Shown here piece after piece: positions 9,103 to 64,000 of a stretch of DNA of 64,000 nucleotides; positions within the stretch are counted from its first letter, which is position 1; every line of letters begins with the position of its first letter. A program made the position numbers and the translations under genes. The stretch spans positions 2,335,467 to 2,399,466 of the forward strand of contig OZ220710.1 in assembly GCA_965116635.1 (NCBI GenBank), written 5' to 3'. Source of the stretch: Thermodesulfobacteriota bacterium. Lineage in GTDB: Bacteria; Desulfobacterota; Binatia; UBA9968; JAJDTQ01. The notes beneath the pieces are model-generated. The model had not been told where the DNA came from and ran no database searches. It saw only the letters and a program-made list of their open reading frames with translations.

Positions 9103-9144
9103 GGTATCTCCGTAAACACTAGGGAAACTCCGTTGAATTGCCGC

Positions 9145-9277
9145 CGTTCGAGATGGCGCCCTTCGACTTCGCTTCGCTACGCTCAGGGCGAACGGCAATT
9201 GAGTCAAGGAACCCTGATCATACTCCGTTCGCCCTGAGCGTAGCGAAGCGAAGTCGAAGGGCGCCATCTCGAACGGT
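9145..9277. repeat. Repeat family A: near-perfect palindrome, two inverted ~52-bp arms (ccgttcg...cttcgacttcgcttcgctacgctcagggcgaacgg) around a ~31-bp spacer
   Basis: Read directly. The left arm at 9145-9194 is the reverse complement of the right arm at 9226-9277. The same core recurs at 11907, 12097, 15632, 40868 and 50701. Confidence 0.85.
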
Positions 9278-10619: not shown

Positions 10620-11699
10620 CTACGACAACCTGGGAACGATCTCGTCGCTCAGGAACCGGATCACCGAGGCGTAGTCCCGGCCCAGCTTGGCGAAGGAGAT
10701 CTGTTGGAACCCGAGGCGCTCGGCTTCGGCCGCGAGCTCCAGGATCGGTTCCACGCAGTCCGAGGGCCGGCCGGCCACGAAGCAGGCCCGCGGCATGGCG
10801 TCGGTCACCAGCTCCCGCGAGGCCTGCTCGATGGTCATTCCCGAGTGAAGCGCCTCCCGGATGCGATTGACCTGTTCATAGTCGATGCCGATGCGCGCGA
10901 ACTCCTCGGGGCTGTATCCCAGGGCCTGGAGGCTCACCATGTGGTGGGCCGAGTACTTCTTGGCCTCGGCCAGCGCCTCCTCCGGCTCTTCCGATACCGC
11001 CAGATTGATCTCGCAGACCTTCCGCAGCTTCTTGTCCGGGTCCACCGCCCGGGCGGCGGCGTCCGCGCCCGCCATGGCCTGCTCCAGCCGGCCGAGCTTG
11101 TGCATGGAGATGAAATAGCCGCCCATGAGCACCCCCTCCATGGTCTCGCCCGCGATGGCCAGGAACCGGGGCCCCACGCCGCCGCCGTAGAAACGCACCG
11201 GCGCCGCGGGAGGGCACACCAGCTCGATGTGCCCGCGGGGGTTCATGTGGAAGTAGTCGCACAGAGCAGGGTACTCGTCGAATTGTACCCTTTCGCCGCG
11301 GAACAGCGTGCCCAGGAAGCCCACCGTCTCCCGGACCACGCGGAAGGGCTTGACCATATCCAGGTACTGCGGCACCTGCCCCTTGCTGCCCTTGGCGATG
11401 CCGAGGCTGATCTCACGGCCCTCGGTGAGCTCCGAGATGGCCAGCACCGAGTCGGCCACGTCGATGGGATTGCGGAAATAAGGCACGAGGATGGCGGTGC
11501 CGACCTTGAGGGGGGCGCGGGCGGCGATGGCCGTCGCCACGCTCAGCACATTGCGGTAACGGAGCGAATCGCTGAGCCAGACCTGCTTGAAGCCCCTCTC
11601 CGCGCCGAGCTCCGCCAGCTCCACCAGCTCCCGCGTGGTGTAATAGGAAGCCGCCTGCAGCACGAACTGGAGCCCGAACTCCCCCGAGAATATCGCCAT
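10620..11699 (-). CDS. LLM class (luciferase-like) flavin/F420-dependent oxidoreductase
   Basis: 359 aa with a TIM-barrel luciferase-like monooxygenase signature (FGLQFV, SDSL, GRFLAIAGE). Confidence 0.85.
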   Translation of the reverse strand: MAIFSGEFGLQFVLQAASYYTTRELVELAELGAERGFKQVWLSDSLRYRNVLSVATAIAARAPLKVGTAILVPYFRNPIDVADSVLAISELTEGREISLGIAKGSKGQVPQYLDMVKPFRVVRETVGFLGTLFRGERVQFDEYPALCDYFHMNPRGHIELVCPPAAPVRFYGGGVGPRFLAIAGETMEGVLMGGYFISMHKLGRLEQAMAGADAAARAVDPDKKLRKVCEINLAVSEEPEEALAEAKKYSAHHMVSLQALGYSPEEFARIGIDYEQVNRIREALHSGMTIEQASRELVTDAMPRACFVAGRPSDCVEPILELAAEAERLGFQQISFAKLGRDYASVIRFLSDEIVPRLS

Positions 11700-11906
11700 C
11701 CCCTCCCCCTTTCGGCCTGACGTTCAATTGGGGGATGTATCCCGATTCCGCCACGGCCCGCAAGGCCACGGCAATCGTCAGGAACCGGGATGACGGTTCG
11801 AATCACGCGCTCGGGATTGACCAGTGTCGTGTCCCGAAAATTCCTGCGATTGGTTGCGCACGATTTTGCTGTCGGCAAGGCGCGATGACTTGCAGGGGGG
11901 CGACCA

Positions 11907-11946
11907 CCGTTCGTCCTGAGCGTAGCGAAGCGAAGTCGAAGGGCGC
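11907..11946. repeat. Repeat family A, single arm
   Basis: ccgttcgtcctgagcgtagcgaagcgaagtcgaagggcgc. Confidence 0.8.
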
Positions 11947-11964
11947 AAAATTCCGACAGGGTGC

Positions 11965-12181
11965 TAGTGTGGTGTCTGGTTAATTCGCGTCATAATATGC
12001 GGAGCATTTTTTGTCGTCGGCAAGGCGCGATGACTTGTAGGGGCGACCTGCGGTCGCCCTTCGGTGGCGGGCACCACGCGAGGAAGAGCAACGCAGCCGC
12101 CCTTCGACTTCGCTTCGCTCAGGATGCGCGGAGCGAAAAAGACCCACGGATTATGATGCGAATTAACCAGACACCACACTA
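11965..12181. mobile_element. MITE-like nonautonomous element (family C) with ~32-bp terminal inverted repeats and TA target-site duplication; carries nested copies of repeat families A and B
   Basis: Left TIR tagtgtggtgtctggttaattcgcgtcataat (11965-). Right TIR attatgatgcgaattaaccagacaccacacta (-12181). It is flanked by TA and has no coding capacity. The interior shares ttgtcggcaaggcgcgatgac with the element at 39315-39476. Confidence 0.75.
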
Positions 12182-13075
12182 GGTGCCGGCGGCGTGGCGT
12201 TCTTCCCGGAGCGCGGCGATCCGGTCCTCGAGGGGGGGATGGCTGGCGAAGAGCATCCGCAGACCGCCCTTGCGGACGCCGGCGATCCCCATTGCCTCCA
12301 ACTGTTCCGGCATGTGCTCGGGCTCCACGCTGCGTTGGAGCGCCTCGAGGGCGCCGATCATGCTGGCCTTGCCGGCCAGATACGCGCCGCCAGCGTCGGC
12401 CCGGTACTCGCGCCGGCGCGAGTACCAGGAGACCACCAAGCTGGCCAGGATACCGAGCAGGATCTGCGTGACGATCACGGTGACGAAGTAGCCCATGCCG
12501 TAGCCCCCTTCGCCGTCCCGGTGGAGCGCGCGGTCCACGACGTATCCGATTACGCGGGAAAGGAAGATCACGAAGGTGTTGAGAACGCCCTGGAGCAGGG
12601 TCAGCGTCACCATGTCGCCGTTGGCCACGTGGCTCACCTCGTGACCCAGCACGGCCGAGGCCTGATCCGGCTTCATGGTCCGCAGCAGTCCCGTGCTCAC
12701 CGCCACTAGTGAGTTGTTGCGGCTCGGGCCCGTGGCAAAGGCGTTGGGCTCCGGGGAATCGTAGACCGCCACCTCGGGCATGGCGATGTTCGCGGCCCGG
12801 GCGTAGTTTTGCACGGTGTTGACAAGCCAGATCTCGGTGTTGTTTTGGGGCTCATCGATGACCGTCAATCCCATCCATCTCTTGGCCGTCCACTTGGAGA
12901 TGCGCAACGAGATGAACGCGCCGCCCATGCCGAAGATGAAGGAGAAGGCCAGCAGCGGCCAGAAGTCGATGCCGTATTGAAAAAGCAACCACTCAAGGCC
13001 GAGTACACGGAGCGCAACGGCCAGCACGAAAACGATTGCAAGGTTGGTGATCAGAAAAAGAAATACGCGTTTCAT
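12179..13075 (-). CDS. htpX: protease HtpX homolog (M48 family zinc metalloprotease)
   Basis: N-terminal TM helices. HEXXH in GHEVSHVANGDM, typical of HtpX. The stop codon TAG (12179-12181) lies inside the MITE terminal repeat. Confidence 0.85.
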   Translation of the reverse strand: MKRVFLFLITNLAIVFVLAVALRVLGLEWLLFQYGIDFWPLLAFSFIFGMGGAFISLRISKWTAKRWMGLTVIDEPQNNTEIWLVNTVQNYARAANIAMPEVAVYDSPEPNAFATGPSRNNSLVAVSTGLLRTMKPDQASAVLGHEVSHVANGDMVTLTLLQGVLNTFVIFLSRVIGYVVDRALHRDGEGGYGMGYFVTVIVTQILLGILASLVVSWYSRRREYRADAGGAYLAGKASMIGALEALQRSVEPEHMPEQLEAMGIAGVRKGGLRMLFASHPPLEDRIAALREERHAAGT

Positions 13076-15613: not shown

Positions 15614-15631
15614 GAGGCTGTCGGATTCTTG

Positions 15632-15750
15632 CGTCCTTCGACTTCGCTTCGCTACGCTCAGGACGAACGGAGAGAGACTTTCACAACCGTTCGTCCTGAG
15701 CCCTTCGACAGGCTCAGGACAGGCTTCGCGAAACGAAGTCGAAGGACGCT
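15632..15750. repeat. Repeat family A palindromic element (with an internal insertion in the right arm)
   Basis: gcgtccttcgacttcgcttcgctacgctcaggacgaacgg ... ccgttcgtcctgag ... cgaagtcgaaggacgc. Confidence 0.85.
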
Positions 15751-19511: not shown

Positions 19512-19720
19512 TGTCAATCGTCCCGTGACGCCCATCCAGGGGCCGTCGGAGGCTCTTTCGGCGTGTGGAGATGGGTCAAAATTTCATGGCGTTTTTTCGT
19601 TGCTTGGAGCCGCCCAAGTCTGATAGGTACTTAACTCTTTTATAACTTTGGCGTGATCGCGGCATGTGCCACGACGGACCACGGTCCACGCGGCTACGGC
19701 GGGTAACGCCCGGAACACGG

Positions 19721-22255
19721 ATGACCGGTATGATGTACCACACCAAAACCCTTTGCCTTCTGGTGGCACTGTTCATGTCCCTCGCCTCATGCGTCTCCAT
19801 CGAGGAACACGAGGAACTGAACCGCGAGAAACAACGCGTAGAGGCGGACAATACCACTCTGACGCAGGACCTTCAGCGCCGAGGACGCGAGGTTACCACC
19901 CTCGAAGCGAGAGTCGCGGAACTGACGCAGGACGTGACCCGGTCCGAGGGCAGGCTCGAACAGAGGGGACAGGAACTCGCGGACGCGCAACGACAGATCA
20001 ACGAGCTGACGGCATCCCTGGCCCAGGTCCGGCAGGAGTTGAACACCGCCGTCACCGAACGAAGCAACACCGTGAACCGCTACCAGCGGAGAGTGGCGGA
20101 TTTGACGGCCGAACGGGACAACACCCTCAAGACCGTCGACGACTATGCCGCGCAACTCGACGAAAAAGCGGCGGCAGTACAGGATCTGGACGCCAGAGTT
20201 CGGGAATTGGCCCGTCTCAGGGACTCCCTGGTGCAGCAGAACGCCCTTCTGGCGACCGCCAAGGCCGATCTCGAAGAAAACTTCGCCGCGCTTGTACGCA
20301 ACCGGGATGAATTGACCGCGCAAGTGGAAGGGCTTGGGACCCAGGTGGCCCAGCAGGATCGGGTCATCAGCGGCATGAGCGCCCAAACCGATCGGCTGAA
20401 CGCGGTGAAGCAGTCGCTGGAAGCGGAAGTCACCAACCAGAAGGCCAGCATGGCACAGTTGCGGCAGCAAGTGTCGGAAGTGACACGCTCACTGGAACAG
20501 ACCCGCGCCGACAAGGACGACGCCCTGGCCAACCTCGCCGCAAAGGAAGAGGAAGCCGGCGAAAAACTCGCCTCCCTGACCGCCGCCCATGAGCAGGCCG
20601 TCGAACAACACCGGCGGCAACTGGCCCTGACCACCCGCTCGCTGAACCAGACCCGCGCCGACAAGGACGAGGCCCTGGCCAACCTCGCCGCAAAGGAAAA
20701 AGAAGCCGCCGAGAAACTGGCGTCCCTTACGTCCCTTGCCGCCGCCCATGAACAGGCCGTCCAAAAGCTCCGGCAACAACTGGCTCAAACCACTCGCTCA
20801 CTGGAGCAGACCCGCGCCGACAAGGACGACGCCCTGGCCAACCTCGCCGCAAAGGAAAAAGAAGCCGGTGAGAAACTCGCCGCCCTTGCCGCCGATCATG
20901 AACAGGCCGTCACAGAGCTCCGGCAGCAACTCGGTCAGACCACTCGCGCCCTGAACCAGACCCGCGCCGATGAGGAAAAGGCCTTGGCCGACCTCGCCGC
21001 CAGGGAACGGGCGACCACCGCAAGCCTGATTTCTCTCACCACCTCCCACGAACAGGCCGTCAGCCAGTTGCGGCAACAATTGGCACAGGCCACGGCTTCC
21101 CTCGAACAAGTGCAGACGAAAAAGGACCAGGAAATCGCCGCCCTGACCGCCGATTCACAACGCCTTGCGAAACAGTTGGCGACGTTGAGGGCCGGCCATG
21201 AAGAAGCCACCGGACGACTGCGGCAGCAACTGGCCGAAGCGACACGGTCTCTCGAACGGACGCAGGCCGGGAAGGACCAGGCGCTCGCGGCCTTGACGGT
21301 GGTCCAAGGAGACCTCACGACACAATTGGGGCAACTGAAGTCCGCCGTCGAACAGGCTGTCGGAGAGTCGCAGAGACAACAGGCTCAAGCCGCCGTGGCG
21401 CAACTTGAACAACGCCTGGCGGAGGTGAATCGTTCGCTGGGACAGACCCGCGCCGAGAAGGAACAAGCCTTGGCCGACCTGGCTGCCAGGGAAAAGGAAG
21501 CGACCGAGAAGCTCACCTCGCTCACCACCGCCCACGAACAGGCCGCCGCGCAACTTCAGGGGCAACTGGATGAGACCAACCGCTCCCTCGAGCAGACCCG
21601 GGGCGAGAAAGCCAAAGCGGTAGCCGATGTCGCCGCCAGGGAAAAGGAAGCGGCCGAAAAACTCGCCGCCCTCACCGCCGCCCACGAACAGGCCGCCGCG
21701 CAGCTTCAGCGGCAACTGGACGAAACCAATCGCTCGCTCGAACAGACCCGCAGCGAAAAAGAACAGGCGATGGCCGATCTCACCGCCAAGGAAAAGGAAG
21801 CGGCAGACAAGATCGCCGCCCTCACCGCCGCCCACCAGCAGGCGGCCGCGCAGCTTCAACAGCAACTGGAAGATACCAACCGCTCGCTCGAACAGACCCG
21901 CACAGAGAAGCAGCAGGCCGTGACCGATCTGGCCGTCAAGGAAAAGGAGGCGGCAGACAAGATCGCTGCCCTCACCGCCACCCACAATCAGGCCGCCGCG
22001 CAGCTACGGCAGCAACTGGCGGAAACCAACCGCTCGCTCGAACAGACCCGCACAGAGAAGCAGGAAGCCGTTACCGCCCTGGGCGTCGACAAGCAGAAAC
22101 TCGCGCTGCAGATGACCAAGGCGGAGGCCGAGCGCGACGCCCTCAAGCAACAGATCGAGGGAAAACTCGTGCTGGAAACCTACTGGCAGTGGATCTTCGG
22201 CGCGGTCGTGGGCCTCGGAGCCATTGGTTGGGGTTCCAGGTGGTTCCGGTCGTAG
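19721..22255 (+). CDS. lipoprotein with ~10 tandem 50-aa coiled-coil repeats and C-terminal transmembrane anchor
   Basis: Signal peptide plus lipobox (LFMSLASC). The unit RSLEQTRADKDDALANLAAKEKEAGEKLASLTAAHEQAVEQHRRQLAQTT is repeated about 10 times. The C-terminus WQWIFGAVVGLGAIGWG is hydrophobic. Confidence 0.7.
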   Translation: MTGMMYHTKTLCLLVALFMSLASCVSIEEHEELNREKQRVEADNTTLTQDLQRRGREVTTLEARVAELTQDVTRSEGRLEQRGQELADAQRQINELTASLAQVRQELNTAVTERSNTVNRYQRRVADLTAERDNTLKTVDDYAAQLDEKAAAVQDLDARVRELARLRDSLVQQNALLATAKADLEENFAALVRNRDELTAQVEGLGTQVAQQDRVISGMSAQTDRLNAVKQSLEAEVTNQKASMAQLRQQVSEVTRSLEQTRADKDDALANLAAKEEEAGEKLASLTAAHEQAVEQHRRQLALTTRSLNQTRADKDEALANLAAKEKEAAEKLASLTSLAAAHEQAVQKLRQQLAQTTRSLEQTRADKDDALANLAAKEKEAGEKLAALAADHEQAVTELRQQLGQTTRALNQTRADEEKALADLAARERATTASLISLTTSHEQAVSQLRQQLAQATASLEQVQTKKDQEIAALTADSQRLAKQLATLRAGHEEATGRLRQQLAEATRSLERTQAGKDQALAALTVVQGDLTTQLGQLKSAVEQAVGESQRQQAQAAVAQLEQRLAEVNRSLGQTRAEKEQALADLAAREKEATEKLTSLTTAHEQAAAQLQGQLDETNRSLEQTRGEKAKAVADVAAREKEAAEKLAALTAAHEQAAAQLQRQLDETNRSLEQTRSEKEQAMADLTAKEKEAADKIAALTAAHQQAAAQLQQQLEDTNRSLEQTRTEKQQAVTDLAVKEKEAADKIAALTATHNQAAAQLRQQLAETNRSLEQTRTEKQEAVTALGVDKQKLALQMTKAEAERDALKQQIEGKLVLETYWQWIFGAVVGLGAIGWGSRWFRS
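20480..22080 (+). repeat. ~150-bp in-frame tandem DNA repeats (about 10-11 copies) inside the coiled-coil lipoprotein gene
   Basis: Repeated cgctc(g/a)ctggaacagacccgcgccgacaaggacgacgccctggccaacctcgccgcaaaggaa... units. Confidence 0.8.
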
Positions 22256-30398: not shown

Positions 30399-30535
30399 TC
30401 AGGGCTAGGGGCGACCGCGGGTCGCCCCTACGGGGATTCATCGCAGCGCAATAGGTCAGGGGCGACCGCGGGTCACCCCTGCGGGGCACGGGTAGGGGCG
30501 ACCCGCGGTCGCCCCCTGACCGGATTCCCGCCGCA
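30399..30535. repeat. Repeat family B: three tandem GC-rich palindromic units (taggggcgaccgcgggtcgcccct) between convergent genes
   Basis: Copies at about 30406, 30463 and 30501 with irregular spacing. The same palindrome recurs at 36856-36930 and inside the MITE at 12035. Confidence 0.8.
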
Positions 30536-36855: not shown

Positions 36856-36930
36856 GCGGACCCTGTAGGGGCGACCCGCGGTCGCCCTGCCGGGGCCGCC
36901 GCCACAAGGGCGACCGCGGGTCGCCCCTAC
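36856..36930. repeat. Repeat family B: two inverted GC-rich palindromic units
   Basis: gtaggggcgacccgcggtcgccc ... agggcgaccgcgggtcgcccctac. Confidence 0.8.
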
Positions 36931-36964
36931 ACGCATACCCCCTTGCCTCGCGGTAGATTCCCGA

Positions 36965-39314: not shown

Positions 39315-39476
39315 TAGTGTCCTGTCCGGCCAATTCGCATGGTAATCTGCTGGTCCCTTTCGCCGTCAGCTGCGTTGCTCTTCCTCGCGTGGTGCCCGCT
39401 ACTGCTCGTCATCGCGCCTTGCCGACAACAAAAATCCTGCGCATCTTACCATGCGAATTGGCCGGACAGGACACTA
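39315..39476. mobile_element. MITE-like element (family C), same family as 11965-12181, TA target duplication
   Basis: TIRs tagtgtcctgtccggccaattcgcatggtaa / ttaccatgcgaattggccggacaggacacta. Sits in the coxS-coxL intercistronic space. The right TA is part of the coxS TAG stop. Confidence 0.75.
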
Positions 39477-39935
39477 TCCCCGGGCCACGCTTCGGAGGGC
39501 CTGCATGATTTCCTGGTAGCAGCCGCAACGGCAGAAGCTGCCGCCCATGTAGCTCTTGATCTGTTCGTCGTCGGGATGGGGGTTCTCGTCCAGCATGGCC
39601 TTGGCCGTGAGCAGGAAGCCCGAGGTGCAGTAGCCGCACTGCAACGCCCCGAACTTCATGAACGACTCCTGCAACGGGTGCAGCCGGTCGCCTTCGGCCA
39701 ACCCCTCCACGGTGGTGACCTTGCGGCCGCCGGCGTCCACCGCCAGCACCGAGCAGGCGCTCACCGGCTTGCCGTCCACCAGCAGCGTGCAGGCGCCGCA
39801 AACCTGTATGTCGCACCCCAGCTTGGCGCCGGTGAGGCCCAGCTCTTCCCGGACCACGTCGAGCAGCGTGCGCCAAGGCTCCACCTCCACCTGGCAGGAC
39901 GTGCCGTTGACCTCCATGGTGATGGCTTTCTTCAT
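39474..39935 (-). CDS. (2Fe-2S)-binding small subunit of XDH/CODH family enzyme (CoxS-like)
   Basis: Two 2Fe-2S cysteine clusters: CGACTLLVDG and CGYCTSG...CRCGCY. Confidence 0.85.
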   Translation of the reverse strand: MKKAITMEVNGTSCQVEVEPWRTLLDVVREELGLTGAKLGCDIQVCGACTLLVDGKPVSACSVLAVDAGGRKVTTVEGLAEGDRLHPLQESFMKFGALQCGYCTSGFLLTAKAMLDENPHPDDEQIKSYMGGSFCRCGCYQEIMQALRSVARG

Positions 39936-40810: not shown

Positions 40811-40867
40811 GATCGCCGGGAAACGTGGTTAACGGTTTCGGGTTTCACGGGCAGCCGGCCCGTGGCG

Positions 40868-40985
40868 GTCCTTCGACTTCGCTTCGCTACGCCTGTCCTG
40901 AGCCTTGTCGAAGGGCTCAGGACGAACGGAACCTAGCATTGTGCCACCGTTCCTGAGCGTAGCGAAGCGAAGTCGAAGGACGCCA
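40868..40985. repeat. Repeat family A palindromic element
   Basis: ccttcgacttcgcttcgctacgc ... ccgttcctgagcgtagcgaagcgaagtcgaaggacgc. Confidence 0.85.
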
Positions 40986-41000
40986 TGCATCACCGACGCC

Positions 41001-50700: not shown

Positions 50701-50770
50701 GAAGAGAGTCCCAAAACCGTTCGCCCTGAGCGTAGCGAGCCGCACGAGAGCGAAGTCGAAGGGCGCCATC
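50701..50770. repeat. Repeat family A, hairpin plus single arm
   Basis: gggcgaaccgg...ccgttcgccctgagcgtagcga..gcgaagtcgaagggcgcc. Confidence 0.8.
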
Positions 50771-50799
50771 TTGCTCGACGGCAATGGATCAGAGCTTCC

Positions 50800-51744
50800 C
50801 TAACCAATGGCCAGCGAGCCATCGGCGGGGCCGAGGGCGGCCACCATCTCGGAGTAGGAAGCGAGTCCGAAACGGCTCTCCATCGCCTCGCGCCAGATGC
50901 CGTCCAGAGCTGCCCGCACGTCCATCGGCAGCCTGTCCACGTGGTCGCCCACCCGGCCGCTCCTCAACTTGGACGATGCGCCTCCGGGCGGCAGGCCGTT
51001 GGCGGCATTGCGCGCGGCGCGCAACACGTGATCGTCGAACCGGGTTCCGTGCGCCTTCATGAATCCAATGGAGGATTGGCGGACCACGATCTCCAACAGC
51101 TCATCGTCAAGTGGACAGCCAATGAACCCGGCGATGCGCCGCACCGTTCCGGGCACGTCCGCCAGGGCCGACTCGTAGCTCAGCATCAACACGTCCTCGC
51201 GGCCGCGTTGCGGCCACCACGAGGCCACGTGTTTCCAGTAGCCACGGTCCCGCTCCGGCGCCAGAAAGAAATTCCGGGAATAGTCCGCCAGGGTGATGGC
51301 CCCGGCCTCGAAACGCCACCCCTCGTGGAAGTGGTACAGGGACACCAGCACGTCCCCGGGGTCCCGGACCATGGTGATGTAACGGCCTCCCTTGGGAACA
51401 TCGTACCAGCTCAGGTGGCTCTTGAAGGCCCGCGGCTCCGCAACCTGAGGAGCACCGGGGTCGATGCCGAGGTCCAGCGCCAGCTCGAGCCACGGCACCA
51501 CCAGGGTGATCTCCTCGAAGTCCATGGAGCCCCGGGTCCTGAGCCCGTGGACGATCTGTTGCAACCAGGTGGTGCCGCACTTGGGGAAGGTGGCGATGAG
51601 AACGTCGGTGGGTTCCGGGCGGAACGCCAGCGCCGCGGTCCGGCTGGCCGTGCTGCCGATGCCGCCCCGGAAGGAGGCCATCTCGGCCACCGACCGGGCA
51701 CGCTTGAGAACGGGCGGCACCCGGTTCGGGTCGTGGTTCACCAT
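50800..51744 (-). CDS. sulfotransferase family protein (PAPS-dependent, Sulfotransfer_1-like)
   Basis: 5'-PSB motif TFPKCGTTW and 3'-PB motif RDPGDVLVSLYHF. Confidence 0.85.
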   Translation of the reverse strand: MVNHDPNRVPPVLKRARSVAEMASFRGGIGSTASRTAALAFRPEPTDVLIATFPKCGTTWLQQIVHGLRTRGSMDFEEITLVVPWLELALDLGIDPGAPQVAEPRAFKSHLSWYDVPKGGRYITMVRDPGDVLVSLYHFHEGWRFEAGAITLADYSRNFFLAPERDRGYWKHVASWWPQRGREDVLMLSYESALADVPGTVRRIAGFIGCPLDDELLEIVVRQSSIGFMKAHGTRFDDHVLRAARNAANGLPPGGASSKLRSGRVGDHVDRLPMDVRAALDGIWREAMESRFGLASYSEMVAALGPADGSLAIG

Positions 51745-54822: not shown

Positions 54823-55227
54823 ATGCGCATCGACACGCTCGAAATAGACAACGCACTGCTGCGAAAGCAGTACCTCGAACAACACAAGACCCTCACCAGC
54901 GGGCAGATAAGAGAAGCATCCGGACTGAAAACCCGAAACCCCTCCGAACCCGCATCGCGCTGGAAGAGGCAAGGCAAGATCTTCGGCGTCCCTGTCGGAA
55001 GGGCCGATCACTATCCGGCGTTCCAGTTCAGGGACGGACGACCACGGCCCGAGATCGCCAGAGTTCTCGCCGCGCTCCCCGGATCCATGTCACCCTGGCA
55101 GATCGCCTTCTGGTTCACCTCCAAGAACGGGTGGATCGAAAACGACGCGGCGCCCCAGGACGCTTTGCATGATATCGGCGGCGTGCTCGCGGCCGCGGCC
55201 GATCTTGCATCCGACGACCTTGGTTGA
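54823..55227 (+). CDS. Xre/MbcA/ParS-type antitoxin (DUF2384-like) of a RES toxin-antitoxin pair
   Basis: 134 aa, immediately upstream (3-bp gap) of a RES-domain gene. The C-terminal SPWQIAFWFTSKNGWIENDAAPQDAL resembles the DUF2384 toxin-binding region. Confidence 0.6.
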   Translation: MRIDTLEIDNALLRKQYLEQHKTLTSGQIREASGLKTRNPSEPASRWKRQGKIFGVPVGRADHYPAFQFRDGRPRPEIARVLAALPGSMSPWQIAFWFTSKNGWIENDAAPQDALHDIGGVLAAAADLASDDLG

Positions 55228-55230
55228 TTC

Positions 55231-55833
55231 GTGGAGTTCTCCATTCCGGATCCTCCACGTCGGCTCTCGCCCATCCCTCCGCTCGAGGGGCTGCCAGCAG
55301 GCTCATGGTTGCACCGTATACATTGGGTTGCCTGGCGCAGCGCTCAGTTCAACACCGGTGACCGCGTGTCCCGCTTTGCACCCATCGTTGACTCGGAGGG
55401 CCGCCGTGTACCCGTGCTGTATGCCGGCCACACATTTGACGTCGCAGCCTACGAATCGCTGTTTCACGCCATCGGCCCGGGCCAGGAAATGTTGACCTGG
55501 CCGGCAAGCGGGCTCACCGGGCTCGCCCATTCAATCCTGGAAACCCGACGCGACCTTGACGTAGTTCCTCTGTTCCGACGGAACCTCATCGGATGGAATG
55601 TATCCGACCTTGAAATCATCAAGGCGCCAGCCAGATACTATCACCAGACCGCGCGATGGGCAGAGGCCGTCCACCGCTCCATCGCCGAAGCTGCCGGCAT
55701 GGTCTGGATCTCGAATCGCGAGGGTAGCGACCTCTCCGGCCCGGTGGTCGAGGCCGTACGGCAGGATGAGTTCTCACCCCTTGCCGACGTGCCGTCGAAT
55801 CAAATAGTGTTGGCGGCGCGACTGTGGATGTAG
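55231..55833 (+). CDS. RES domain toxin
   Basis: GTG start. Candidate R-E-S residues in SRFAP, VLYAGHTFDVAAYESLFH and VWISNRE, arranged as in RES toxins. Lies downstream of the antitoxin. Confidence 0.65.
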   Translation: MEFSIPDPPRRLSPIPPLEGLPAGSWLHRIHWVAWRSAQFNTGDRVSRFAPIVDSEGRRVPVLYAGHTFDVAAYESLFHAIGPGQEMLTWPASGLTGLAHSILETRRDLDVVPLFRRNLIGWNVSDLEIIKAPARYYHQTARWAEAVHRSIAEAAGMVWISNREGSDLSGPVVEAVRQDEFSPLADVPSNQIVLAARLWM

Positions 55834-56732
55834 TCACCAAAGCGCTGGAATGTCTCATCGACCGTATGGATTCCCTGGTCGAAAAGGCCATACCCGAAGA
55901 AGCTTGCGGTAGCGACGCGCACTTCGGCATTAGGACACTCCGGTAGAGTGTCGAGTACGTCGCGTAGTATCAAGCTGTCTGGATCGTGATTTGCCAACAC
56001 AAGCAATACGACTGGCGGTGCGTCGCTGAAACTGTCCAAGTCTTTGCCGCAGTCGATTAGGCCCAACTCCCGCTTCTGGTTAAAGACTTCCACCATATCT
56101 TCCTTGAGGTCCTTCACATTCCCGGGACGGCCAAGGAAGTTCTTCACGTCAGCGATGTGTGCGTGCAACCCGGCCTTGTCCTTCAACGCCGTGTCGCCGT
56201 ACTTCATTTCCATGATGACGAGCCGCCGATTGGCTGCTTGCTTGCGTACTTGCGTTCTCGATGGCCAGTGCACAGCGATGGCGTCGAACCTCGGCGTCGA
56301 AGACGCCCGCTGATACTCGATATCGCAAATGTAGTAGTCTGTTTTCCGGGCGGCCCGCCCGAAGTTGTTTTCCCGCAGAAGTACTTGTTGAACCTCGCGT
56401 TCATCGTTCCGTTTCTTGCCGAAGAACCGGTCAATCGCCTGTTTCAACGTGGCGGAAAACTCGATCCACTCGTCGACATCCATTCTTCGAAGAACCTGGG
56501 GCTCAGGGAATTGGGCCGAGTCTTTTTTCATAAAGTAGTTTTTGTCGAAGCGGATATCGTATCCATGAGAGAGTTGCCGGACCACCATCAGGTTACCGCC
56601 TCGGTAGTAGACATTGATGTAGCTCCCTCTCAACTCGAGACAAAGGCTCGGGTCCGCAATCACCTCACGCCTCAACCGCGCCAGAACTCCATCCTTCAAA
56701 TCGTTTCGAAACCTGTCGTTAATGGCACGCAT
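55800..56732 (-). CDS. uncharacterised protein with putative PD-(D/E)xK nuclease-like core (FDAIAV ... IMEMKYG)
   Basis: 310 aa, low GC, no family recognised. The D...E-x-K spacing is consistent with a restriction-endonuclease-like fold. Translationally coupled to the upstream MBL gene (18-nt gap, GGAGG). Confidence 0.45.
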   Translation of the reverse strand: MRAINDRFRNDLKDGVLARLRREVIADPSLCLELRGSYINVYYRGGNLMVVRQLSHGYDIRFDKNYFMKKDSAQFPEPQVLRRMDVDEWIEFSATLKQAIDRFFGKKRNDEREVQQVLLRENNFGRAARKTDYYICDIEYQRASSTPRFDAIAVHWPSRTQVRKQAANRRLVIMEMKYGDTALKDKAGLHAHIADVKNFLGRPGNVKDLKEDMVEVFNQKRELGLIDCGKDLDSFSDAPPVVLLVLANHDPDSLILRDVLDTLPECPNAEVRVATASFFGYGLFDQGIHTVDETFQRFGDYIHSRAANTI

Positions 56733-56750
56733 ATCCCTTGTTCCTCCGTT

Positions 56751-58004
56751 TCAAACTACCCACCATTCGCCGTCGTCTCTCTGGACGACATCATCAAACA
56801 ACTCCCCGAACCGACTCGTCTCGAAGGAATGGATCGGGACCAGTGTACCTGGCCCCAACGCGCCGGCAAACCGTGCCAAGTCGGCGACCGAGGCGTGACC
56901 GGACGTGTGAATCGTACGCCGGGGAACACCATGCTGTTCCAACCATTTCAGGACCCTCAACGAGCCCTTCTCTTTCAGATATCCCTCCCACATCGAGTAC
57001 GTGAACCCCGCTCCGTCGAGCACCGCATTGACACCGCGGTCGGTCATCGCCATTGGGCGGAACAACATAACTGCCCGGCTGGCCAAGTCGGGAAGAGCTT
57101 CCGGGAAGACCCGATTCGCCTTGTGCCGTCCGAGGTCATCGAACAGGCCGTTCTCCTTGATGAACACACGCTGCCGTTGCGGAATGTAGACCTTCACCTC
57201 GTCCCAGTTAGATTGCGGGATGCTGTCCCGGCCCGTCGCCTCCAGCACCACCGCGGTGTAGAGGTCAATGAGCAGCACCCGGGCGGTCCGTTTGGCGGCG
57301 CGGAAGATCGTGACCAGGCGGTCGATGTTCTGCGAGGAGGTCCAGACGAAGTGGAGGCCCTTGGTTTCCTTGAAGGCCTGCATGAACTCCGTCTCAAGGT
57401 CGTCCTCGGTAGCGAACCCTTCGTCTGCTCCCGTCCGACCGATGGTCGTTCCCTCCATCAAGAGGACGTCGATGTCCTTCGGCGGGCCGGCAACCATCGC
57501 TTCGAACAACTTCGACTTGCGGCCGTGGGCGCGGAAATCGCCGGAGTAGAACACCCGCTTGCCGTCCGCCTCGACCAGGAGATGGTAGGCATCGAACGCG
57601 CTGTGGTCTACCAGGTACGGCGTGACGCGAAACGGACCGATCTCGACGGGTGTCCGGTCGGCGATGAAGTTAGGGTCGGTGAAGGCAGTCCCGTTGGGAA
57701 CGTAAGCGCTTGCCGCCTTCATCACGTTGTGCGCACCCTGGCCGATGTAGACGGGAACCTCCGGGCGGACGTACCGGGCCAAGCCGTAGTGGTCCATGTG
57801 GGGATGCGAGATAAGCACACCGAGCAGGCTTTCCTCCGGCTCCCGGAAACCCGGAACCTGCGGCAGCAGGCTCTTGTGCCACTCCACGTCGTCCGGCGCG
57901 TCGAGCGGCAGGCCGACGTCCAGGGCGATACGCTTCCCTTGCGCCTCTATCTCGATACAGGTACCGCCGATTTCCTTCGTGCCTCGATGAATTCGAACTT
58001 TCAT
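56751..58004 (-). CDS. metallo-beta-lactamase fold, beta-CASP family nuclease
   Basis: HPHMDH is an HxHxDH motif. N-terminal KEIGGTCIEIEAQGKRIALDVG is a beta-CASP/RNase J-like strand. FYSGDFR (motif A Asp) and IHTSGHAS (motif B/C His). The start is uncertain (ATG 58004 vs upstream ATG 58082). Confidence 0.7.
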   Translation of the reverse strand: MKVRIHRGTKEIGGTCIEIEAQGKRIALDVGLPLDAPDDVEWHKSLLPQVPGFREPEESLLGVLISHPHMDHYGLARYVRPEVPVYIGQGAHNVMKAASAYVPNGTAFTDPNFIADRTPVEIGPFRVTPYLVDHSAFDAYHLLVEADGKRVFYSGDFRAHGRKSKLFEAMVAGPPKDIDVLLMEGTTIGRTGADEGFATEDDLETEFMQAFKETKGLHFVWTSSQNIDRLVTIFRAAKRTARVLLIDLYTAVVLEATGRDSIPQSNWDEVKVYIPQRQRVFIKENGLFDDLGRHKANRVFPEALPDLASRAVMLFRPMAMTDRGVNAVLDGAGFTYSMWEGYLKEKGSLRVLKWLEQHGVPRRTIHTSGHASVADLARFAGALGPGTLVPIHSFETSRFGELFDDVVQRDDGEWWVV

Positions 58005-58112
58005 ATCGTCAAATGCCTTCGCGACATGGCTCCCGTCCACCAAATTCAGTCCAATTCCTCCTCGGCCAGTGCCGCGCCCCATCGGTTTCCGGCAACGTGA
58101 ACCCCTTTCCAT

Positions 58113-58350
58113 ACACTATTCAGAGGGCGAGAAGTATATATCTTTGTGCCTAGCGAAAATTAATCGAGTATTTTAGTACGATTCTCTCATGGTGGAAGTC
58201 GGAGGAACCGCGACCCGCTGACCGGTCACGGTAGACGCGCAACCCTGTAGCCGCCCTTGCAGCAGCGCGATGTTGCTGGTGGGATTCGTCCAGAAGGGCT
58301 TGGCGAGAGGTTTCGGGGGTGGCCTGAAGCAGGCCGCTGGCGAGAACGCT
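58113..58350 (-). promoter_or_regulatory. AT-rich leader/promoter region upstream of the MBL-nuclease operon
   Basis: About 40% GC (tatatatctttgtgcctagcgaaaattaatcgagtattttagtacg) in a ~67% GC genome. No precise -35/-10 assigned. Confidence 0.3.
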
Positions 58351-58680
58351 TCAGTCCAAGGCGAGTGCAAAGCGCACTGCGGTGGCCACACTCTCCATTT
58401 TTTCAGCCGGGAGACTCGTGAGCAGCGAGCCGACTCTGCCGCGTGGAACCGTCTGCAAATGATCGCAGTTCACCGCGCATTCACGAGCCATTCCATCGTC
58501 GGCCGACAGTACGACCTCGCTCGGGATACCGCGAACGGTCGTGGTGACGGGAACGACCGTCACTTCGCTCAGGCTCGGAATGATCGAGTCACGTGTGAGA
58601 ACGAGCACAGGTCTGCGCCTGTCCGGGCGACCGAATCGGTACCAGCGGATCTCACCGCGACGCATCACTCCTCTTTCCAC
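58351..58680 (-). CDS. PemK/MazF family endoribonuclease toxin
   Basis: RRGEIRWYRFGRPDRRRPVLVLTRDSI...VTVVPVTTT...SEVVL matches the MazF/PemK pattern. Confidence 0.8.
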   Translation of the reverse strand: MERGVMRRGEIRWYRFGRPDRRRPVLVLTRDSIIPSLSEVTVVPVTTTVRGIPSEVVLSADDGMARECAVNCDHLQTVPRGRVGSLLTSLPAEKMESVATAVRFALALD

Positions 58681-58913
58681 GCATCGTCACCCCATGCGTG
58701 ATCCCTTTCCGGGATGTCGAACTCCTGTTTGGCGGGCGGGTTCTTTCGGTATCCGGCTCTGTGGCGCTCTTCCAATTCCGCTTCGTCGTAGCGCTCCAGG
58801 GCGGCTCTCAACACTTTGCGTGTAAACCCTGAGCGCGTGGTACCGAGACGCTTCGCCCGTCGGTCGACCCTTTCCACGAGATCGGCATCCATCGTTAGCT
58901 GTATGACTTTCAT
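58665..58913 (-). CDS. ribbon-helix-helix (CopG/MazE-like) antitoxin
   Basis: TMDADLVERVDRRAKRLGTTRSGFTRKVLRAAL is an RHH motif. Overlaps the PemK gene by 16 bp. Confidence 0.7.
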   Translation of the reverse strand: MKVIQLTMDADLVERVDRRAKRLGTTRSGFTRKVLRAALERYDEAELEERHRAGYRKNPPAKQEFDIPERDHAWGDDAWKEE

Positions 58914-58974
58914 AGCTATACACTAACCTATTCTGTGCTCTATACAAGTCTCTAGGACGTGGTCGTGTCGACCG

Positions 58975-59508
58975 TCAGAAGTAGCGCACGCGGGCCAAGA
59001 GTTCGGCGTCCGGCCGTCCGGCGGCCGTCGCCGGCCATCCGGTCAGATCCGGGCGCGGCCCAAAGAGCGCGAAAACCTTGCCGTCTCTGGCTGGCCCGGA
59101 CTGTAGCCCGCCGTCGACCCGCCAGCCATGCGCGCCGCCTGAACGCAGGGCAGCCGACGGCGCCGTGAGCCCGGACGCGCCTCCGTTTCGAAAGCGGTCG
59201 GCTTCCCGTTGGCAATCGAGCCAGCTCTCCCGACCGCCGGTCAGCGTCGCTGGCGCCAACTCCGGCTCCTCCCCCGGCTCGTCACCGATGTCCACCGCCC
59301 ATAGTGCCCGGCGAACCGTCAGCAGGTCCTCCGGATCGACGATTTCCTCGTGACGCAGGAACTCGGCCCACGCCCCGTCCGGCGTATCCGTGAAATAGTG
59401 TGTCAACTGGCCCGGGGCGTTCCATCGACCCGCGGGTTGAGACGAGTCTCCCCGGAGGAAAGGGAAACGGGGATCGGCGTGACAAAAGGCGATCATGTCA
59501 CCGGCCAC
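58975..59508 (-). CDS. RES domain toxin (second copy)
   Basis: GRWNAPG, YFTDTPDGAWAEFLRHE and LTAPSAA provide the R-E-S positions. Overlaps the upstream antitoxin by 16 bp. Confidence 0.7.
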   Translation of the reverse strand: MAGDMIAFCHADPRFPFLRGDSSQPAGRWNAPGQLTHYFTDTPDGAWAEFLRHEEIVDPEDLLTVRRALWAVDIGDEPGEEPELAPATLTGGRESWLDCQREADRFRNGGASGLTAPSAALRSGGAHGWRVDGGLQSGPARDGKVFALFGPRPDLTGWPATAAGRPDAELLARVRYF

Positions 59509-60113
59509 GGTCCAAGGGCTGCCGCCAACTCCCGCACTTGCCGCGGCCCGTCGTCATCCGGTCCCCAATCCCCGTGCAGCAACTGAGCGGGTGCATACCC
59601 GTTGAGCAACTGACGTGGACGGTGGAACCAACGGCGGACGCCGACGTCGTTGTACGCACCCGCGAGATCACCCACGACGAAAGCCAGGAAGTGGAGACGG
59701 GCGGCGACCGCATCGGGCGTCGTCCGGGCGCCGGCGAAATAGCGACGGGCGCTTGACACCGAGATCCTCATGAGTTCGGCCATGGACTCCAGTCCCAGGA
59801 TACGTTCGACAGCCCGCCACTCCCGCTCGGGAACAGGCGATTCGGTGAGCGCCTCGCTGATCTTCTTGAGCAGAGCGGACAACCTCTCCGGCCCGGTGGT
59901 CGAGGCCGTACGAAGCTCCGCCGTGAGCCCCCGGCCGATCCCGGCATCCGTCAAACCTCTCTCCAATCCCTCCATGGCGGTGTCGTCCAGGCGCACGATT
60001 TCGGCGGGCAGCAAGCCCATGGCATCCGCCCGGCTGAGCGCCTCCATAGCTGCCGGCATCACCTTCGGGTCGTCGAACGGACTGCGGATGGATCCTGATT
60101 GGATATTTAACAC
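59493..60113 (-). CDS. Xre/MbcA/ParS-type antitoxin (DUF2384-like), second copy
   Basis: C-terminal AARLHFLAFVVGDLAGAYNDVGVRRWFHRPRQLLNGYAPAQLL is typical of the DUF2384 toxin-binding domain. Confidence 0.65.
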   Translation of the reverse strand: MLNIQSGSIRSPFDDPKVMPAAMEALSRADAMGLLPAEIVRLDDTAMEGLERGLTDAGIGRGLTAELRTASTTGPERLSALLKKISEALTESPVPEREWRAVERILGLESMAELMRISVSSARRYFAGARTTPDAVAARLHFLAFVVGDLAGAYNDVGVRRWFHRPRQLLNGYAPAQLLHGDWGPDDDGPRQVRELAAALGPWPVT

Positions 60114-60220: not shown

Positions 60221-61324
60221 TCAAACCGCGACTCTTCGCTCGCCCTCCACGGCCAGCCCGTAGAACTCCTCCGCGTTCCGGTGCAGCACGCCGTGCTTGT
60301 CGTCGTCGGTGAGGCGGTCGTTCTCGACGATCTCGCGGATCTCGGCCTTGCAGTAGTCGTTGTTGACCTCGTGGGGAAAGTCGCTGGAAAACATGAAGGG
60401 TTTGTTGCCCAAGGCTTCGATGGCGTTGTGCAGAGTGGGCTCGGTGCCTTCGCAGCCGACGAAGATGCGCCCCTTTTCGGCGTGGCGTCGGATGTAGTCA
60501 CTGACTTGCTCGCCCGGCTTGAGCTGGATGAACTCGCCGCGGGGGTCGTACTGGACGTGGGTTTCCCAGCCCCGGTCGAAGCGTTCGAGGCAGGTGTGAA
60601 TCCAGGCTACGCCGCCTTCCATGAAGCCCACGCGCATGTGGGGATAGCGGTCGAACAGACCGTTGAACACGAAGCCGGCGAAGCACACCATCTGGCCAAA
60701 GGGGTGGCCCAGGCCGTTGATGGGGGCGTAGGGCGTCAGGTAATCCATGCCCAGCCCCTCGTGGGCGCCGCCGTGGACGCCGATGCTGCAGCCCAGCCGG
60801 TCGGCCTCGGCGTACACCGGCCAGTATTCCTTGGAACCCAGGTGCCCCTTGAGGCCCATGGAGGGCAGCATGGCGCCGCAGAAGCCCAGCTCCTCGACGA
60901 TGCGGCGCAGTTCCTTCACCGCCTCCGCTGGCTCCTGCATGGGGATCAGGCCGAGCCCCTGAAACTTCGCGCTCGCCTTCAGGTAGGTGTCGTGGAACCA
61001 GTTGTTGTAGGCTTGGCAGATCTCGATGGCGAAGTCGCCGTTGATCACCTTGCCCACCGCCAGCCCACCGGTGGGGTAGAGGACCGCGCGCTCGATGCCC
61101 ACGTCCTCCATGAACTCCAGCCAGCCCGTCGGGCCCACCTGCCGGAACGCGCCGGGGACGAGGTCGTAGAGAGTGGCGCTGTGGAGGTGATCCAGGGGCG
61201 GGAAGAGCCGTCCCTTGCCCCGGAAACGGTCGTGGTAGGCGGCCGGCATGTACTCCAGCAACGCCTCCCAGTCCTCCATGACGTGACCGTCGCCGTCGAT
61301 GACGTCCATCCGATCCCAGGCCAT
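60221..61324 (-). CDS. amidohydrolase-2 family metal-dependent hydrolase/decarboxylase
   Basis: N-terminus MAWDRMDVIDGDGHVMED. Confidence 0.85.
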   Translation of the reverse strand: MAWDRMDVIDGDGHVMEDWEALLEYMPAAYHDRFRGKGRLFPPLDHLHSATLYDLVPGAFRQVGPTGWLEFMEDVGIERAVLYPTGGLAVGKVINGDFAIEICQAYNNWFHDTYLKASAKFQGLGLIPMQEPAEAVKELRRIVEELGFCGAMLPSMGLKGHLGSKEYWPVYAEADRLGCSIGVHGGAHEGLGMDYLTPYAPINGLGHPFGQMVCFAGFVFNGLFDRYPHMRVGFMEGGVAWIHTCLERFDRGWETHVQYDPRGEFIQLKPGEQVSDYIRRHAEKGRIFVGCEGTEPTLHNAIEALGNKPFMFSSDFPHEVNNDYCKAEIREIVENDRLTDDDKHGVLHRNAEEFYGLAVEGERRVAV

Positions 61325-61341
61325 GTTCGTCCCTCCCCTTT

Positions 61342-62448
61342 CTACAGTCCGTAGAGCCGGCGCGCGTTGTCGCTCAGGATCTTGAGTTTGACGTCCTCGG
61401 AGATGTCGGTGCGCTCCCGGAATACCTTGATGGCGTCCACGTCACTGGAAACGTCGGTGTGCCCGTAGTCAGTGCCGATGACCAGGCCGTCCTCGCCGCT
61501 CTCCTGGACAATATACGCCAGATCGTCACTGTTCTCGCACGTGACGAACATGCCGAACTCCGCCATGGGGTTGTCCGGCCACTCCCGCCCCAGCACACGG
61601 CAGCGGGCGCGAACCTCGCGCAGCATCCAGGGCACCCACTGGGAACTGGCCTCGATGAAACCCCAGCGCAAGTCCGGAAACACCTGCGGTATCTCGCTCA
61701 GCAGAATGTCGCTGAATGCGCCCACGGTAGGCACTCGGAACCGGTGGAAGTTGGCTGCATTGGACACCGGATGGTTGCAGAGGTCGTTGAACCACGGGCT
61801 ACCGTTGGCGATGTGGATGGCGATGGACATGTCCAGGCGCGTGGCTTCCTCATAGATGGGATAGAAATACGGGTCCACCAGGAGCCGGTTGCCCTCATAC
61901 GGCCGCATCAGCACCGCGCAGGCGCCGTGCTCCTTGCCGAAGCGGATCTGGTCCAGGGCATCGGCAATGCTGAGGGTGGGCGCCAGGCACGACCACCTGA
62001 GCCTGCCCTCGGACTGGGACCAGATGTCCCCAAGCCACCGGTTCCAGCTTCCGCACAGCGCCACCTCCACCGGCGCACGGTCCGTCACCTGCTCGATGAA
62101 CATGGTGTTGTGCAGCACCTGGACGTCGACGTCGGTGTCGTCCATGTGCTCCAGCCGAAGCCCCACGTTGCCGAGTTCCATGGACTCGTCCGCGTCGGCG
62201 AACTTGCGGCCCACCCGCCGCTCACGCTGCCGCAGCGCTTCTTCCGAAAACGCCGGAAAGCGGAAGCCCCGCACCTTTCCGTCCACCACCCAGAACTGCT
62301 GCTTGACGCCCGCCTCCTCCGGTGACGCCAGCGGCACCGGACGGTACTGGCGATCGGAGGGATCGAGGTAGTCCCAGGTGCGTTCGCATTCCACCACGTG
62401 GGCGTCCGAGTCCACGATCAAGGGCTTGCCGTTGGCGTCTCCACTCAT
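61342..62448 (-). CDS. amidohydrolase-2 family protein, tandem paralog B
   Basis: MSGDANGKPLIVDSDAHVVECE. AAGGAG lies 8 nt upstream of the ATG at 62448. Confidence 0.85.
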   Translation of the reverse strand: MSGDANGKPLIVDSDAHVVECERTWDYLDPSDRQYRPVPLASPEEAGVKQQFWVVDGKVRGFRFPAFSEEALRQRERRVGRKFADADESMELGNVGLRLEHMDDTDVDVQVLHNTMFIEQVTDRAPVEVALCGSWNRWLGDIWSQSEGRLRWSCLAPTLSIADALDQIRFGKEHGACAVLMRPYEGNRLLVDPYFYPIYEEATRLDMSIAIHIANGSPWFNDLCNHPVSNAANFHRFRVPTVGAFSDILLSEIPQVFPDLRWGFIEASSQWVPWMLREVRARCRVLGREWPDNPMAEFGMFVTCENSDDLAYIVQESGEDGLVIGTDYGHTDVSSDVDAIKVFRERTDISEDVKLKILSDNARRLYGL

Positions 62449-62519
62449 GTCCTTGCTCCTTTGCCCAACTTCCCGAGCCGAACAGGGGCTCAAGGCACGG
62501 GCGGGTTTGACCCCCGGCG

Positions 62520-63626: not shown

Positions 63627-63697
63627 GGCCTTGCTCCTTTTCTCGCCTTCCCGAGCCGGGCAGCCGTCCTGGCACGGGCGGGTTTGAAACCCGCCCC

Positions 63698-64000
63698 CTA
63701 CAGCCCGTAGAGCCGGCGCGCGTTGTCGCTCAGGATCTTGCGCTTGACGTCCTCGGACAGGTCGGCGCGTTCCCGGAAGACCTTGATGGCGTCCACGTCG
63801 CTGGAGGTGTCGGTGTGTCCGTAGTCGGTGCCGATGACCAAGCCGTCCTCGCCGGTCTCCTGCACGATGTACGGCAGGTCGTCGGTATTCTCGCAGGTCA
63901 CGAACATCCGGAAGTGGTCCATGGGGTTGTCCGGCCACTCACGGCCCAGGGTCCGGAAACGGTTGCCGACTTCGTGAAGGATCCAGGGCAGCCACTGGGA
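63698..64000 (-). CDS. amidohydrolase-2 family protein, tandem paralog D, 5'-truncated by window end
   Basis: The C-terminal 100 aa are near-identical to paralogs B and C. The frame stays open to the window end. Confidence 0.8.
   Translation of the reverse strand, partial: SQWLPWILHEVGNRFRTLGREWPDNPMDHFRMFVTCENTDDLPYIVQETGEDGLVIGTDYGHTDTSSDVDAIKVFRERADLSEDVKRKILSDNARRLYGL

Follow-up and report, generated by a model that had tools for sequence, protein, structure and literature searches.

A repeat of roughly 200 bp ends exactly in the stop codon of the htpX gene in the DNA stretch of 64,000 nucleotides analysed here (hereafter the window), raising the questions of what this sequence is, how it moves and whether stop codons are its preferred target. 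An earlier note on the same DNA had read it as a MITE inserted with duplication of TA, and copies elsewhere, consistent TA flanks and empty orthologous sites, all presented below, bear out this reading.

An inverted-repeat element in the htpX stop codon

The htpX gene (Peptidase_M48, 298 aa; Pfam E 2.7e-37) lies on the minus strand at 12179-13075, with its TAG stop at 12181-12179. The adjoining element, which we call E1, extends from 11967 to 12179 (core orientation on the plus strand; nhmmer E 1.6e-33) and measures 213 bp; the ~217 bp originally proposed correspond to 11965-12181, with the TA on each side counted. Its left (11967-11996, plus strand) and right (12150-12179, minus strand) TIRs, previously put at ~32 bp, are perfect over 22 nt and pair at 29 of 30 nt, with 85% complementarity when the arms are extended over 47 nt. 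The 22-mer GTGTGGTGTCTGGTTAATTCGC has only two exact matches in the window, at 11967-11988 (+) and 12158-12179 (-), and none is expected in a shuffled window. The right copy of the TA target duplication (12180-12181) provides the first 2 bases of the htpX stop on the minus strand, and the G pairs with the last base of E1, the C at 12179. The insertion at the TAG stop is thus confirmed, although the TA, which had been described as the last 2 bases of the stop, comes first on the coding strand, with G third.

The left copy of the duplicated TA (11965-11966) doubles as the right flank of a second copy, E0 (11824-11964, plus strand; nhmmer E 2.4e-11), which is degenerate: a match to model positions 1-86 at 11824-11906 is followed by an arm of another repeat, family A, at 11907-11946 and by a decayed right end, and the left flank is CA rather than TA. 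E0 is an older copy and had been overlooked in the earlier note. Together, E0 and E1 contribute 358 bp of DNA able to form hairpins to the 479-bp spacer that separates htpX from the downstream gene for a luciferase-like monooxygenase (10620-11699, minus strand).

The sister copy that the earlier note had located at 39315 is a 158-bp element, E2 (39317-39474, minus strand; nhmmer E 1.6e-43), with a perfect 29-nt TIR, TA on both sides (39315-39316 and 39475-39476) and an orientation opposite to that of E1. It also sits in a stop codon, that of a CoxS-like (2Fe-2S) gene (39474-39935, minus strand), the TAG of which consists of the TA at 39476-39475 and the terminal base of E2. The insertion lies 24 bp upstream of the start codon of a CoxL-like gene and sets coxS 160 bp apart from coxL, leaving the coxL ribosome-binding site intact. 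Two close CoxS homologues, P0121 (193 aa) and P0143 (205 aa), extend 40-52 aa beyond the usual 153 aa; the extra length may stem from an inserted element that is read through, or from an error of gene calling.

A repeat family of Candidatus Binatia

The 18-nt core word TCGGCAAGGCGCGATGAC occurs exactly in E0, E1 and E2. Public sequences match it in at least 115 stretches, with ~18 genomes represented; among the matches listed, nearly all hosts are MAGs, either assigned to Candidatus Binatia or labelled as Deltaproteobacteria, Thermodesulfobacteriota or Syntrophobacterales. A match in Deinococcus (L037) was rejected as a family member, being a chance 18-mer within a gene. From the core-word loci and the window (loci are given L numbers throughout) we extracted 99 full copies, comprising 62 of ~159 bp (the canonical form), 29 of ~183 bp and a few of 200-218 bp like E1. 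A profile of the canonical copies, run with nhmmer over 940 kb of sequence from ~18 Binatia genomes, recognised at least 147 copies (147 hits), and copies are spread along six complete chromosomes. The earlier note had held that a lack of copies elsewhere would speak against a mobile element, an objection which these numbers remove.

All elements have G as their first and C as their last base. The copies are 159-218 bp long, have perfect TIRs of 22-29 nt, are non-coding, dispersed and multi-copy, and can be compared with empty sites, all of which are features of MITEs. An ORF of 43 codons, with its start at position 31 and its end at the TAG or TAA of the flank, was considered and rejected as coding: its start varies (A/T/C/G), and the core, invariant at all codon positions, carries neither a synonymous-site pattern nor any other conserved coding signal. 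No Rfam hit at gathering thresholds was obtained in the window, the only matches on the element being at chance level (E 0.075 and 0.29), and no description of the family was found in the MITE literature that we searched. The E1 family is a large MITE family specific to Candidatus Binatia; it is new as a family, and the kind of element is known.

Several related loci hold internally deleted derivatives, including a 19-bp form with fused termini, TA-GTGTCGCGGGACGCGACAC-TA (L016:9-31), a 48-bp mini-element downstream of the element of L084 and a 74-bp remnant at L053:3968-4043, where another species has a full copy. On the minus strand of L088, downstream of its truncated copy, the similarity breaks off after ...GAGGAAGAGC and gives way to low-GC sequence unlike that of the family, possibly because a further mobile element has landed in this copy. 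The repeats break short-read assemblies, and several short-read MAG contigs stop inside copies; they are also substrates for recombination and markers of recent strain divergence.

Target site and empty orthologous sites

A consistent TA at the flanks, on which the earlier note had made its interpretation depend, is present on both sides of 83 of the 99 full copies. Flank position -3 is C in 92/99 copies and position +3 is G in 86/99 and A in 12/99, the remaining flank positions carrying little information. This composition defines the target as CTAG, less often CTAA, with TA duplicated. A 4-bp duplication of CTAG, as in IS5-like elements, was considered and discarded, since it clashes with E2 (ATAG vs CTAA) and with 12 copies that have TAA on the right; in non-CTAG cases, such as E2 (aTA...TAa), the duplication is limited to TA.

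For both window copies and three further loci, relatives provide empty sites that either show a single TA or match in length. The htpX locus is empty in L117 and L118 (HtpX 98% and 97% identical), where nothing follows ...GGCACC TAG and the spacer to the next gene measures 126-133 bp, compared with 479 bp in the window. At the E2 locus, the closest relative, L125 (CoxS 95% identical), reads GGGATAGCGTGATG, compared with GGGATA-E2-TAACGTGATG in the window. Further filled and empty pairs are L104 vs L055 and L107 vs L087, the latter in both directions, and at one orthologous site a full copy in one species corresponds to a 74-bp internally deleted copy in another. E1 and E2 inserted recently, as they are missing from relatives whose flanking proteins are 95-98% identical. 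Formally, a true duplication looks the same as a TA that travels with the element at one of its ends, and this counts against the explanation proposed below.

A third relative, L119 (HtpX 96% identical), carries one element of a different TIR/arm class at the same htpX TA. The htpX stop codon has been struck independently at least three times, by E0, E1 and the element of L119. Directly after the stop at the empty htpX site of L117 (3886-3915) there is a 12-nt tandem duplication (GCCGGCACCTAG GCCGGCACCTGG), and the empty site of L118 (3895-3915) contains TAGCGTCCCG, which is similar to an element terminus; both may be excision footprints.

Why copies abut stop codons

The earlier note had proposed that insertion sites be mapped relative to stop codons. 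Depending on the strictness of gene calling, the flanking TA forms the stop of a coding-like ORF in 34-40 of the 99 copies, including four that lie on stop codons on both sides, between convergent genes, and no copy (0/99) lies inside a gene. Unoccupied CTAG sites at the same loci comprise 49 at stop codons, 138 intergenic and 71 coding, so that stops account for ~26% of the tolerated sites (49 vs 138), an underestimate, as the strict gene caller inflates the intergenic class. A special targeting of stop codons was considered and rejected on this comparison (34-40% observed vs ~26% expected), any enrichment being small, and the preference for CTAG explains most of the pattern. The association is mostly a by-product of CTAG specificity, selection against gene disruption and the terminal G of the element.

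The same termini have two consequences. With G as first and C as last base, an element that enters the TA of a stop codon, be it TAG or TAA, restores TAG and leaves the protein unchanged; the HtpX C-terminus is ...AAGT in filled and empty relatives alike. The termini also remake CTAG at both junctions, which leads to head-to-tail pairs with one TA and to repeat hits at one site. Such pairs with a common TA are E0-E1 and those at L080, L083, L052 and L099, whereas repeat hits at one site are seen in L079 vs L108. A CTAG target combined with G...C termini thus offers a simple general account of how TA-targeting elements in GC-rich genomes accumulate on stop codons and on one another. At the present locus, the result is mostly an ordinary mobile-element scar, with HtpX and CoxS intact and long hairpins added at the 3' side.

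Variable arms around an invariant centre

Conservation is distributed unevenly along the element. The mean pairwise identity between canonical copies is 83% at the terminal positions 1-10, falls to 47% (minimum 6%) in the arm at positions 11-28, returns to 83% in the inner region (30-55) and reaches 96% in the 50-nt centre (56-105). With a threshold of at most 4 mismatches, the arms fall into 23 classes. Within copies, however, arm positions 11-28 are ~98% complementary, as opposed to 47% identical between copies; the arms are perfect over 29 nt in 31/99 copies and have at most 2 mismatches in 90/99. In an alignment of 57 sequences, 98.5% of the cells are paired, with changes on both sides in 27 of the 32 outer pairs, and this pairing was unmatched by any of 500 shuffles or any slid register. 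The inner stem (44-55 with 106-117) contains conserved U.G/T.G pairs (48:113, 49:112 and 46:115), which pair on one strand only. The same strand folds better in 56/56 copies (-97.5 vs -85.5 kcal/mol), a count which reflects shared ancestry and hence few independent events, and mismatches in the outer stem are more often G.T than A.C (33 vs 8), again among copies that are not independent.

The variable arm was also considered as a guide for target choice. The longest word shared by arm and flank averages 5.6 for a copy's own flanks and 5.8 for the flanks of others; the arm sequence is unrelated to the flanks, and a guide function is therefore unsupported. Arm complementarity is presumably upheld either by selection for the hairpin, as DNA or RNA, or by conversion from arm to arm, and a transposase that reads sequence does not predict compensated arm variation. 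The 23 arm classes constitute a natural dataset for asking whether TIRs are recognised by sequence or by shape.

In the case of conversion, the arms would have stayed complementary without selection, through intramolecular template switching (quasi-palindrome correction), which copies one arm onto the other and lets a neutral spacer drift in concert on both sides. We give this a modest probability; it is a sub-hypothesis compatible with the preferred explanation of the family as trans-mobilised MITEs given below. It agrees with arms that differ freely between copies and match within them, with the lack of any relation between arm and flank, and with the occurrence of recombination between copies (see L062 below). 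Such correction should, however, have erased the T.G mismatches at 48:113, 49:112 and 46:115 of the inner stem, and the excess of G.T over A.C hints, as far as non-independent copies permit, at a tolerance specific to one strand.

Interior blocks and companion repeats

By alignment, E1 corresponds to E2 with two additional blocks. The first, which the earlier note had called family B, occupies 12037-12059 (plus strand) and consists of GTAG followed by the perfect palindrome GGGCGACC-TGC-GGTCGCCC; it conforms to the definition of a REP as GTAG plus palindrome (PMC8266576) and lies in the apical part of the element, at the very site where the 183-bp variant has its defining block. The second, a family-A arm block of ~35 nt (CCCTTCGACTTCGCTTCGCTCAGG...; approximately 12098-12133, plus strand), replaces or destroys part of the inner stem. 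The same family-A block is present at the same position in L065, L097 and L100, elements of 215-218 bp from another genome and with other arm classes, and L097 has a different REP in the first interior site. Because they are identically placed in copies from another genome, the blocks of E1 were inherited, or exchanged between copies by way of the near-identical core, rather than inserted at htpX. Of the proposal that both were nested later insertions, it holds that they are absent from E2 and are insertions relative to the canonical 159 bp; their insertion into E1 at htpX does not hold.

Exchange between copies is illustrated by L062:2836-3024, which in comparison with the orthologous L004 (flanks 97-99% identical) has the same left arm and a right half of another arm class; this chimera is evidence that copies recombine through the conserved core.

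Both kinds of block have counterparts outside the element. Family A is a second palindromic repeat family, with copies at 9144-9276, 15618-15750, 40866-40986 and 50717-50802; the first of these has 52-nt arms of 100% complementarity around a 29-nt loop, and single arms occur within E0 and E1. REP-like units, GTAG followed by GGGCGACC(N3)GGTCGCCC, form clusters at 30405-30524 and 36865-36934, and related Binatia loci (e.g., L009, L031, L057 and L099) are rich in a second REP type (GGGGCGGGTTTCAAACCCGCCCC) and in a CGTCATTCCCGCGGAAGCGGGAATCCAGGGG repeat. An abundant repeat family and its companion REP-like repeats are thereby defined for an uncultured class.

Mobilization

We consider E1 to be a non-autonomous DNA transposon (MITE) mobilised in trans, most likely by a DDE transposase of the IS630/Tc1-mariner type, and assign this reading a probability of roughly 0.7. 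A trans-acting transposase would move the copies, by cut-and-paste or by copying, and its type is suggested by the 2-bp TA duplication together with the CTAG target; IS630 likewise generates a 2-bp duplication at the target CTAG (PMC2577343 Table 1). The IS630/Tc1-mariner link drawn in the earlier note gains support from this agreement, from which we infer the mobilization itself. Integration takes place at the TA of CTAG, with TA duplicated, and the G...C ends rebuild TAG at stop codons and recreate CTAG at both junctions. These properties account for the location of about one third of the copies at stops, for the head-to-tail pile-ups with one TA and for the repeated hits at htpX. Element orientation is unrelated to GC skew (32 vs 37, with skew over 8 kb serving as a weak proxy) and shows no replichore pattern on the six complete chromosomes, which fits a mechanism acting on double-stranded DNA.

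The earlier note had seen no autonomous transposase in the window, and this agrees with our searches: the 25 most frequent of the 50 Pfam families in the main ORFs of the window and all matches of 8 further ORFs comprise only metabolic, transport and RES-toxin domains. Its suggestion that an autonomous IS630-family partner might be found elsewhere did not lead to one in the window, the 940 kb of Binatia loci or a metagenome scan. The 940 kb contained no long inverted-repeat pair, no TAGTGT...ACACTA pair (0.6-3 kb apart) and no multi-copy ORF that could serve as partner; phmmer searches of 5730 ORFs from these ~940 kb with the Shigella IS630 and Mos1 transposases returned nothing, and no RayT homologue was detected by phmmer in the 940 kb. 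A metagenome scan for the E1 TIR followed by non-core bases yielded only one mutated MITE. The lack of a transposase with matching ends in these searches counts against the preferred reading, as do two features of the hairpin: a transposase that reads sequence leaves the covarying arms, with their 23 classes, unexplained, and a purely double-strand mechanism does not require the one-strand T.G pairs of the inner stem.

Some other parts of the window are recorded here as observations in their own right. An ORF at 19664-22255 (plus strand; 863 aa) consists of 150-nt (50-aa) tandem repeats and has only weak coiled-coil-type matches in Pfam. Three tandem paralogous genes with a period of 1178 bp and 74-84% DNA identity occupy 60221-63938 (minus strand). 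The region ~55200-60100, missed by a GC3 gene filter, contains RES-domain ORFs at 55231-55833 (plus strand) and 58975-59508 (minus strand), an ORF with a metallo-beta-lactamase fold at 56751-58112 (minus strand) and further ORFs without a Pfam match. Possibly the region is a toxin-antitoxin island that was acquired.

Two alternatives to a sequence-reading DDE enzyme start from the hairpin. According to the first, the family would be a TA/CTAG-targeting element recognised by its structure, namely the hairpin, the invariant centre of ~100 nt and the conserved 10-nt foot, possibly by a single-copy, vertically inherited Binatia enzyme, or else the centre would be an RNA module on which the host depends. 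We hold this reading to be unlikely.

The second alternative, mobilization of a single-stranded hairpin by an HUH transposase (IS200/IS605 or RAYT-like), as proposed for REPINs, is distinctly unlikely in our assessment. Here, the enzyme would read the shape of the hairpin, the invariant core and the conserved foot (CTA/GTGT), and what looks like a TA duplication would be a cleavage motif carried at one end. The covariation of the arms, the better folding of one strand through conserved T.G pairs, the compensatory changes likewise seen in REPIN hairpins (PMC3116915) and the richness of these genomes in GTAG-type REPs (PMC8266576) would all suit this mechanism. CTAG is, however, palindromic and constrained symmetrically at -3 and +3, as is usual for dimeric DDE enzymes; moreover, single-strand transposons are strand-biased, whereas the orientation of the Binatia element follows neither GC skew nor chromosome position, its ends are true inverted repeats, unlike those of IS200/IS605, and the 940 kb lack a RayT homologue. 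It is because no IS partner emerged from the searches above that this reading, like the host-function reading discussed below, keeps a low probability.

Possible effects on transcripts

In an mRNA, the element is a long hairpin right after the stop codon; for E1, the RNA in htpX sense folds with -118.9 kcal/mol (z = -11). By analogy with Correia and ERIC elements, the hairpin may alter the processing or stability of the mRNA. Where the flanking genes are co-directional, the upstream gene reads into the plus orientation of the element in 24 cases and into the minus orientation in 12 (p = 0.065), which hints at orientation-dependent tolerance. A bidirectional intrinsic terminator was considered and rejected as a feature of the family, as terminator-like hairpins with a T-run are confined to the AATTCGC arm classes, to which E1 and E2 belong, and are lacking in 72/99 copies. 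No outward or internal sigma-70 promoter-like site was found in the element.

A reading of the family as primarily a structured RNA or regulatory module under host selection (e.g., a terminator, an RNase III site or a 3'-UTR stabiliser), which spreads by recombination and the 100-nt core of which is kept by the host, is very improbable: a core 96% identical over ~18 genomes between variable arms, the ~2-fold excess of upstream genes reading into the plus orientation, the very stable RNA hairpin and the action of Correia and ERIC elements on transcripts (PMC10969869) would agree with it, but presence or absence among close relatives with precise TA duplication, the signatures of a selfish element (independent hits on one TA, tandem pile-ups, decayed and chimeric copies), the commonness of both orientations, the lack of an Rfam match in the window and of a promoter-like site in the element, and the rarity of terminator-like hairpins all speak against it.

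Comparison with known systems

Among the known systems, the ERIC/IRU elements of enterobacteria are likewise imperfect palindromes (~127 bp) in transcribed intergenic regions, with internal insertions at fixed sites in some variants, and affect mRNA decay (PMC10969869). They differ from the Binatia family in that the sequences are unrelated, the rules of insertion and the duplications are not the same, and the mobility of ERIC is essentially unobserved.

Correia elements (CREE/NEMIS) of Neisseria resemble the Binatia family in being non-coding, ~100-200 bp long and present in high copy number, in having TIRs and no known parent IS, and in forming hairpins in mRNA. They also duplicate TA. RNase III cleaves the Correia hairpins, which influence the genes next to them (PMC10969869). 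Unlike the Binatia arms, which covary, Correia TIRs are conserved; sequence and host phylum are unrelated, no promoter was found in the Binatia element, and an IHF site and an RNase III effect are known from the Correia side alone.

REPINs, which are mobilised by RAYT, share with the Binatia family a long hairpin with compensatory changes in the stem (PMC3116915), persistence in one lineage and an unlinked transposase. They are, however, doublets of GTAG-type REPs in which the REPs are the conserved part, and they cause no TA duplication, whereas the Binatia element uses a palindromic target, CTAG, ends in true TIRs and is not biased toward a replication strand. The combination of strand bias and lack of duplication expected of a REPIN is absent here, with orientations at 32 vs 37 and TA duplicated in the empty-site comparisons, and the form GTAG plus palindrome is confined to the 23-nt block of E1 rather than describing the whole 159-bp element.

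The closest parallels are with the IS630 family and its derivatives. IS870, a member of the IS630 family, uses a CTAG target to complete a stop codon, and the TA-GTGTGG of the Binatia family presumably resembles the end of Tc3 (TA-CAGTGTGG). IS630 and IS630-derived MITEs have in common with the Binatia family the 2-bp TA duplication, the location of the TA within 5'-CTAG-3' and the TIRs (PMC2577343 Table 1). Unlike IS630-derived MITEs, the Binatia family came without a transposase-bearing parent in the window, the 940 kb of loci and the metagenome scan. It also reverses the usual MITE pattern, in that its arms are hypervariable between copies and its interior is the most conserved part.
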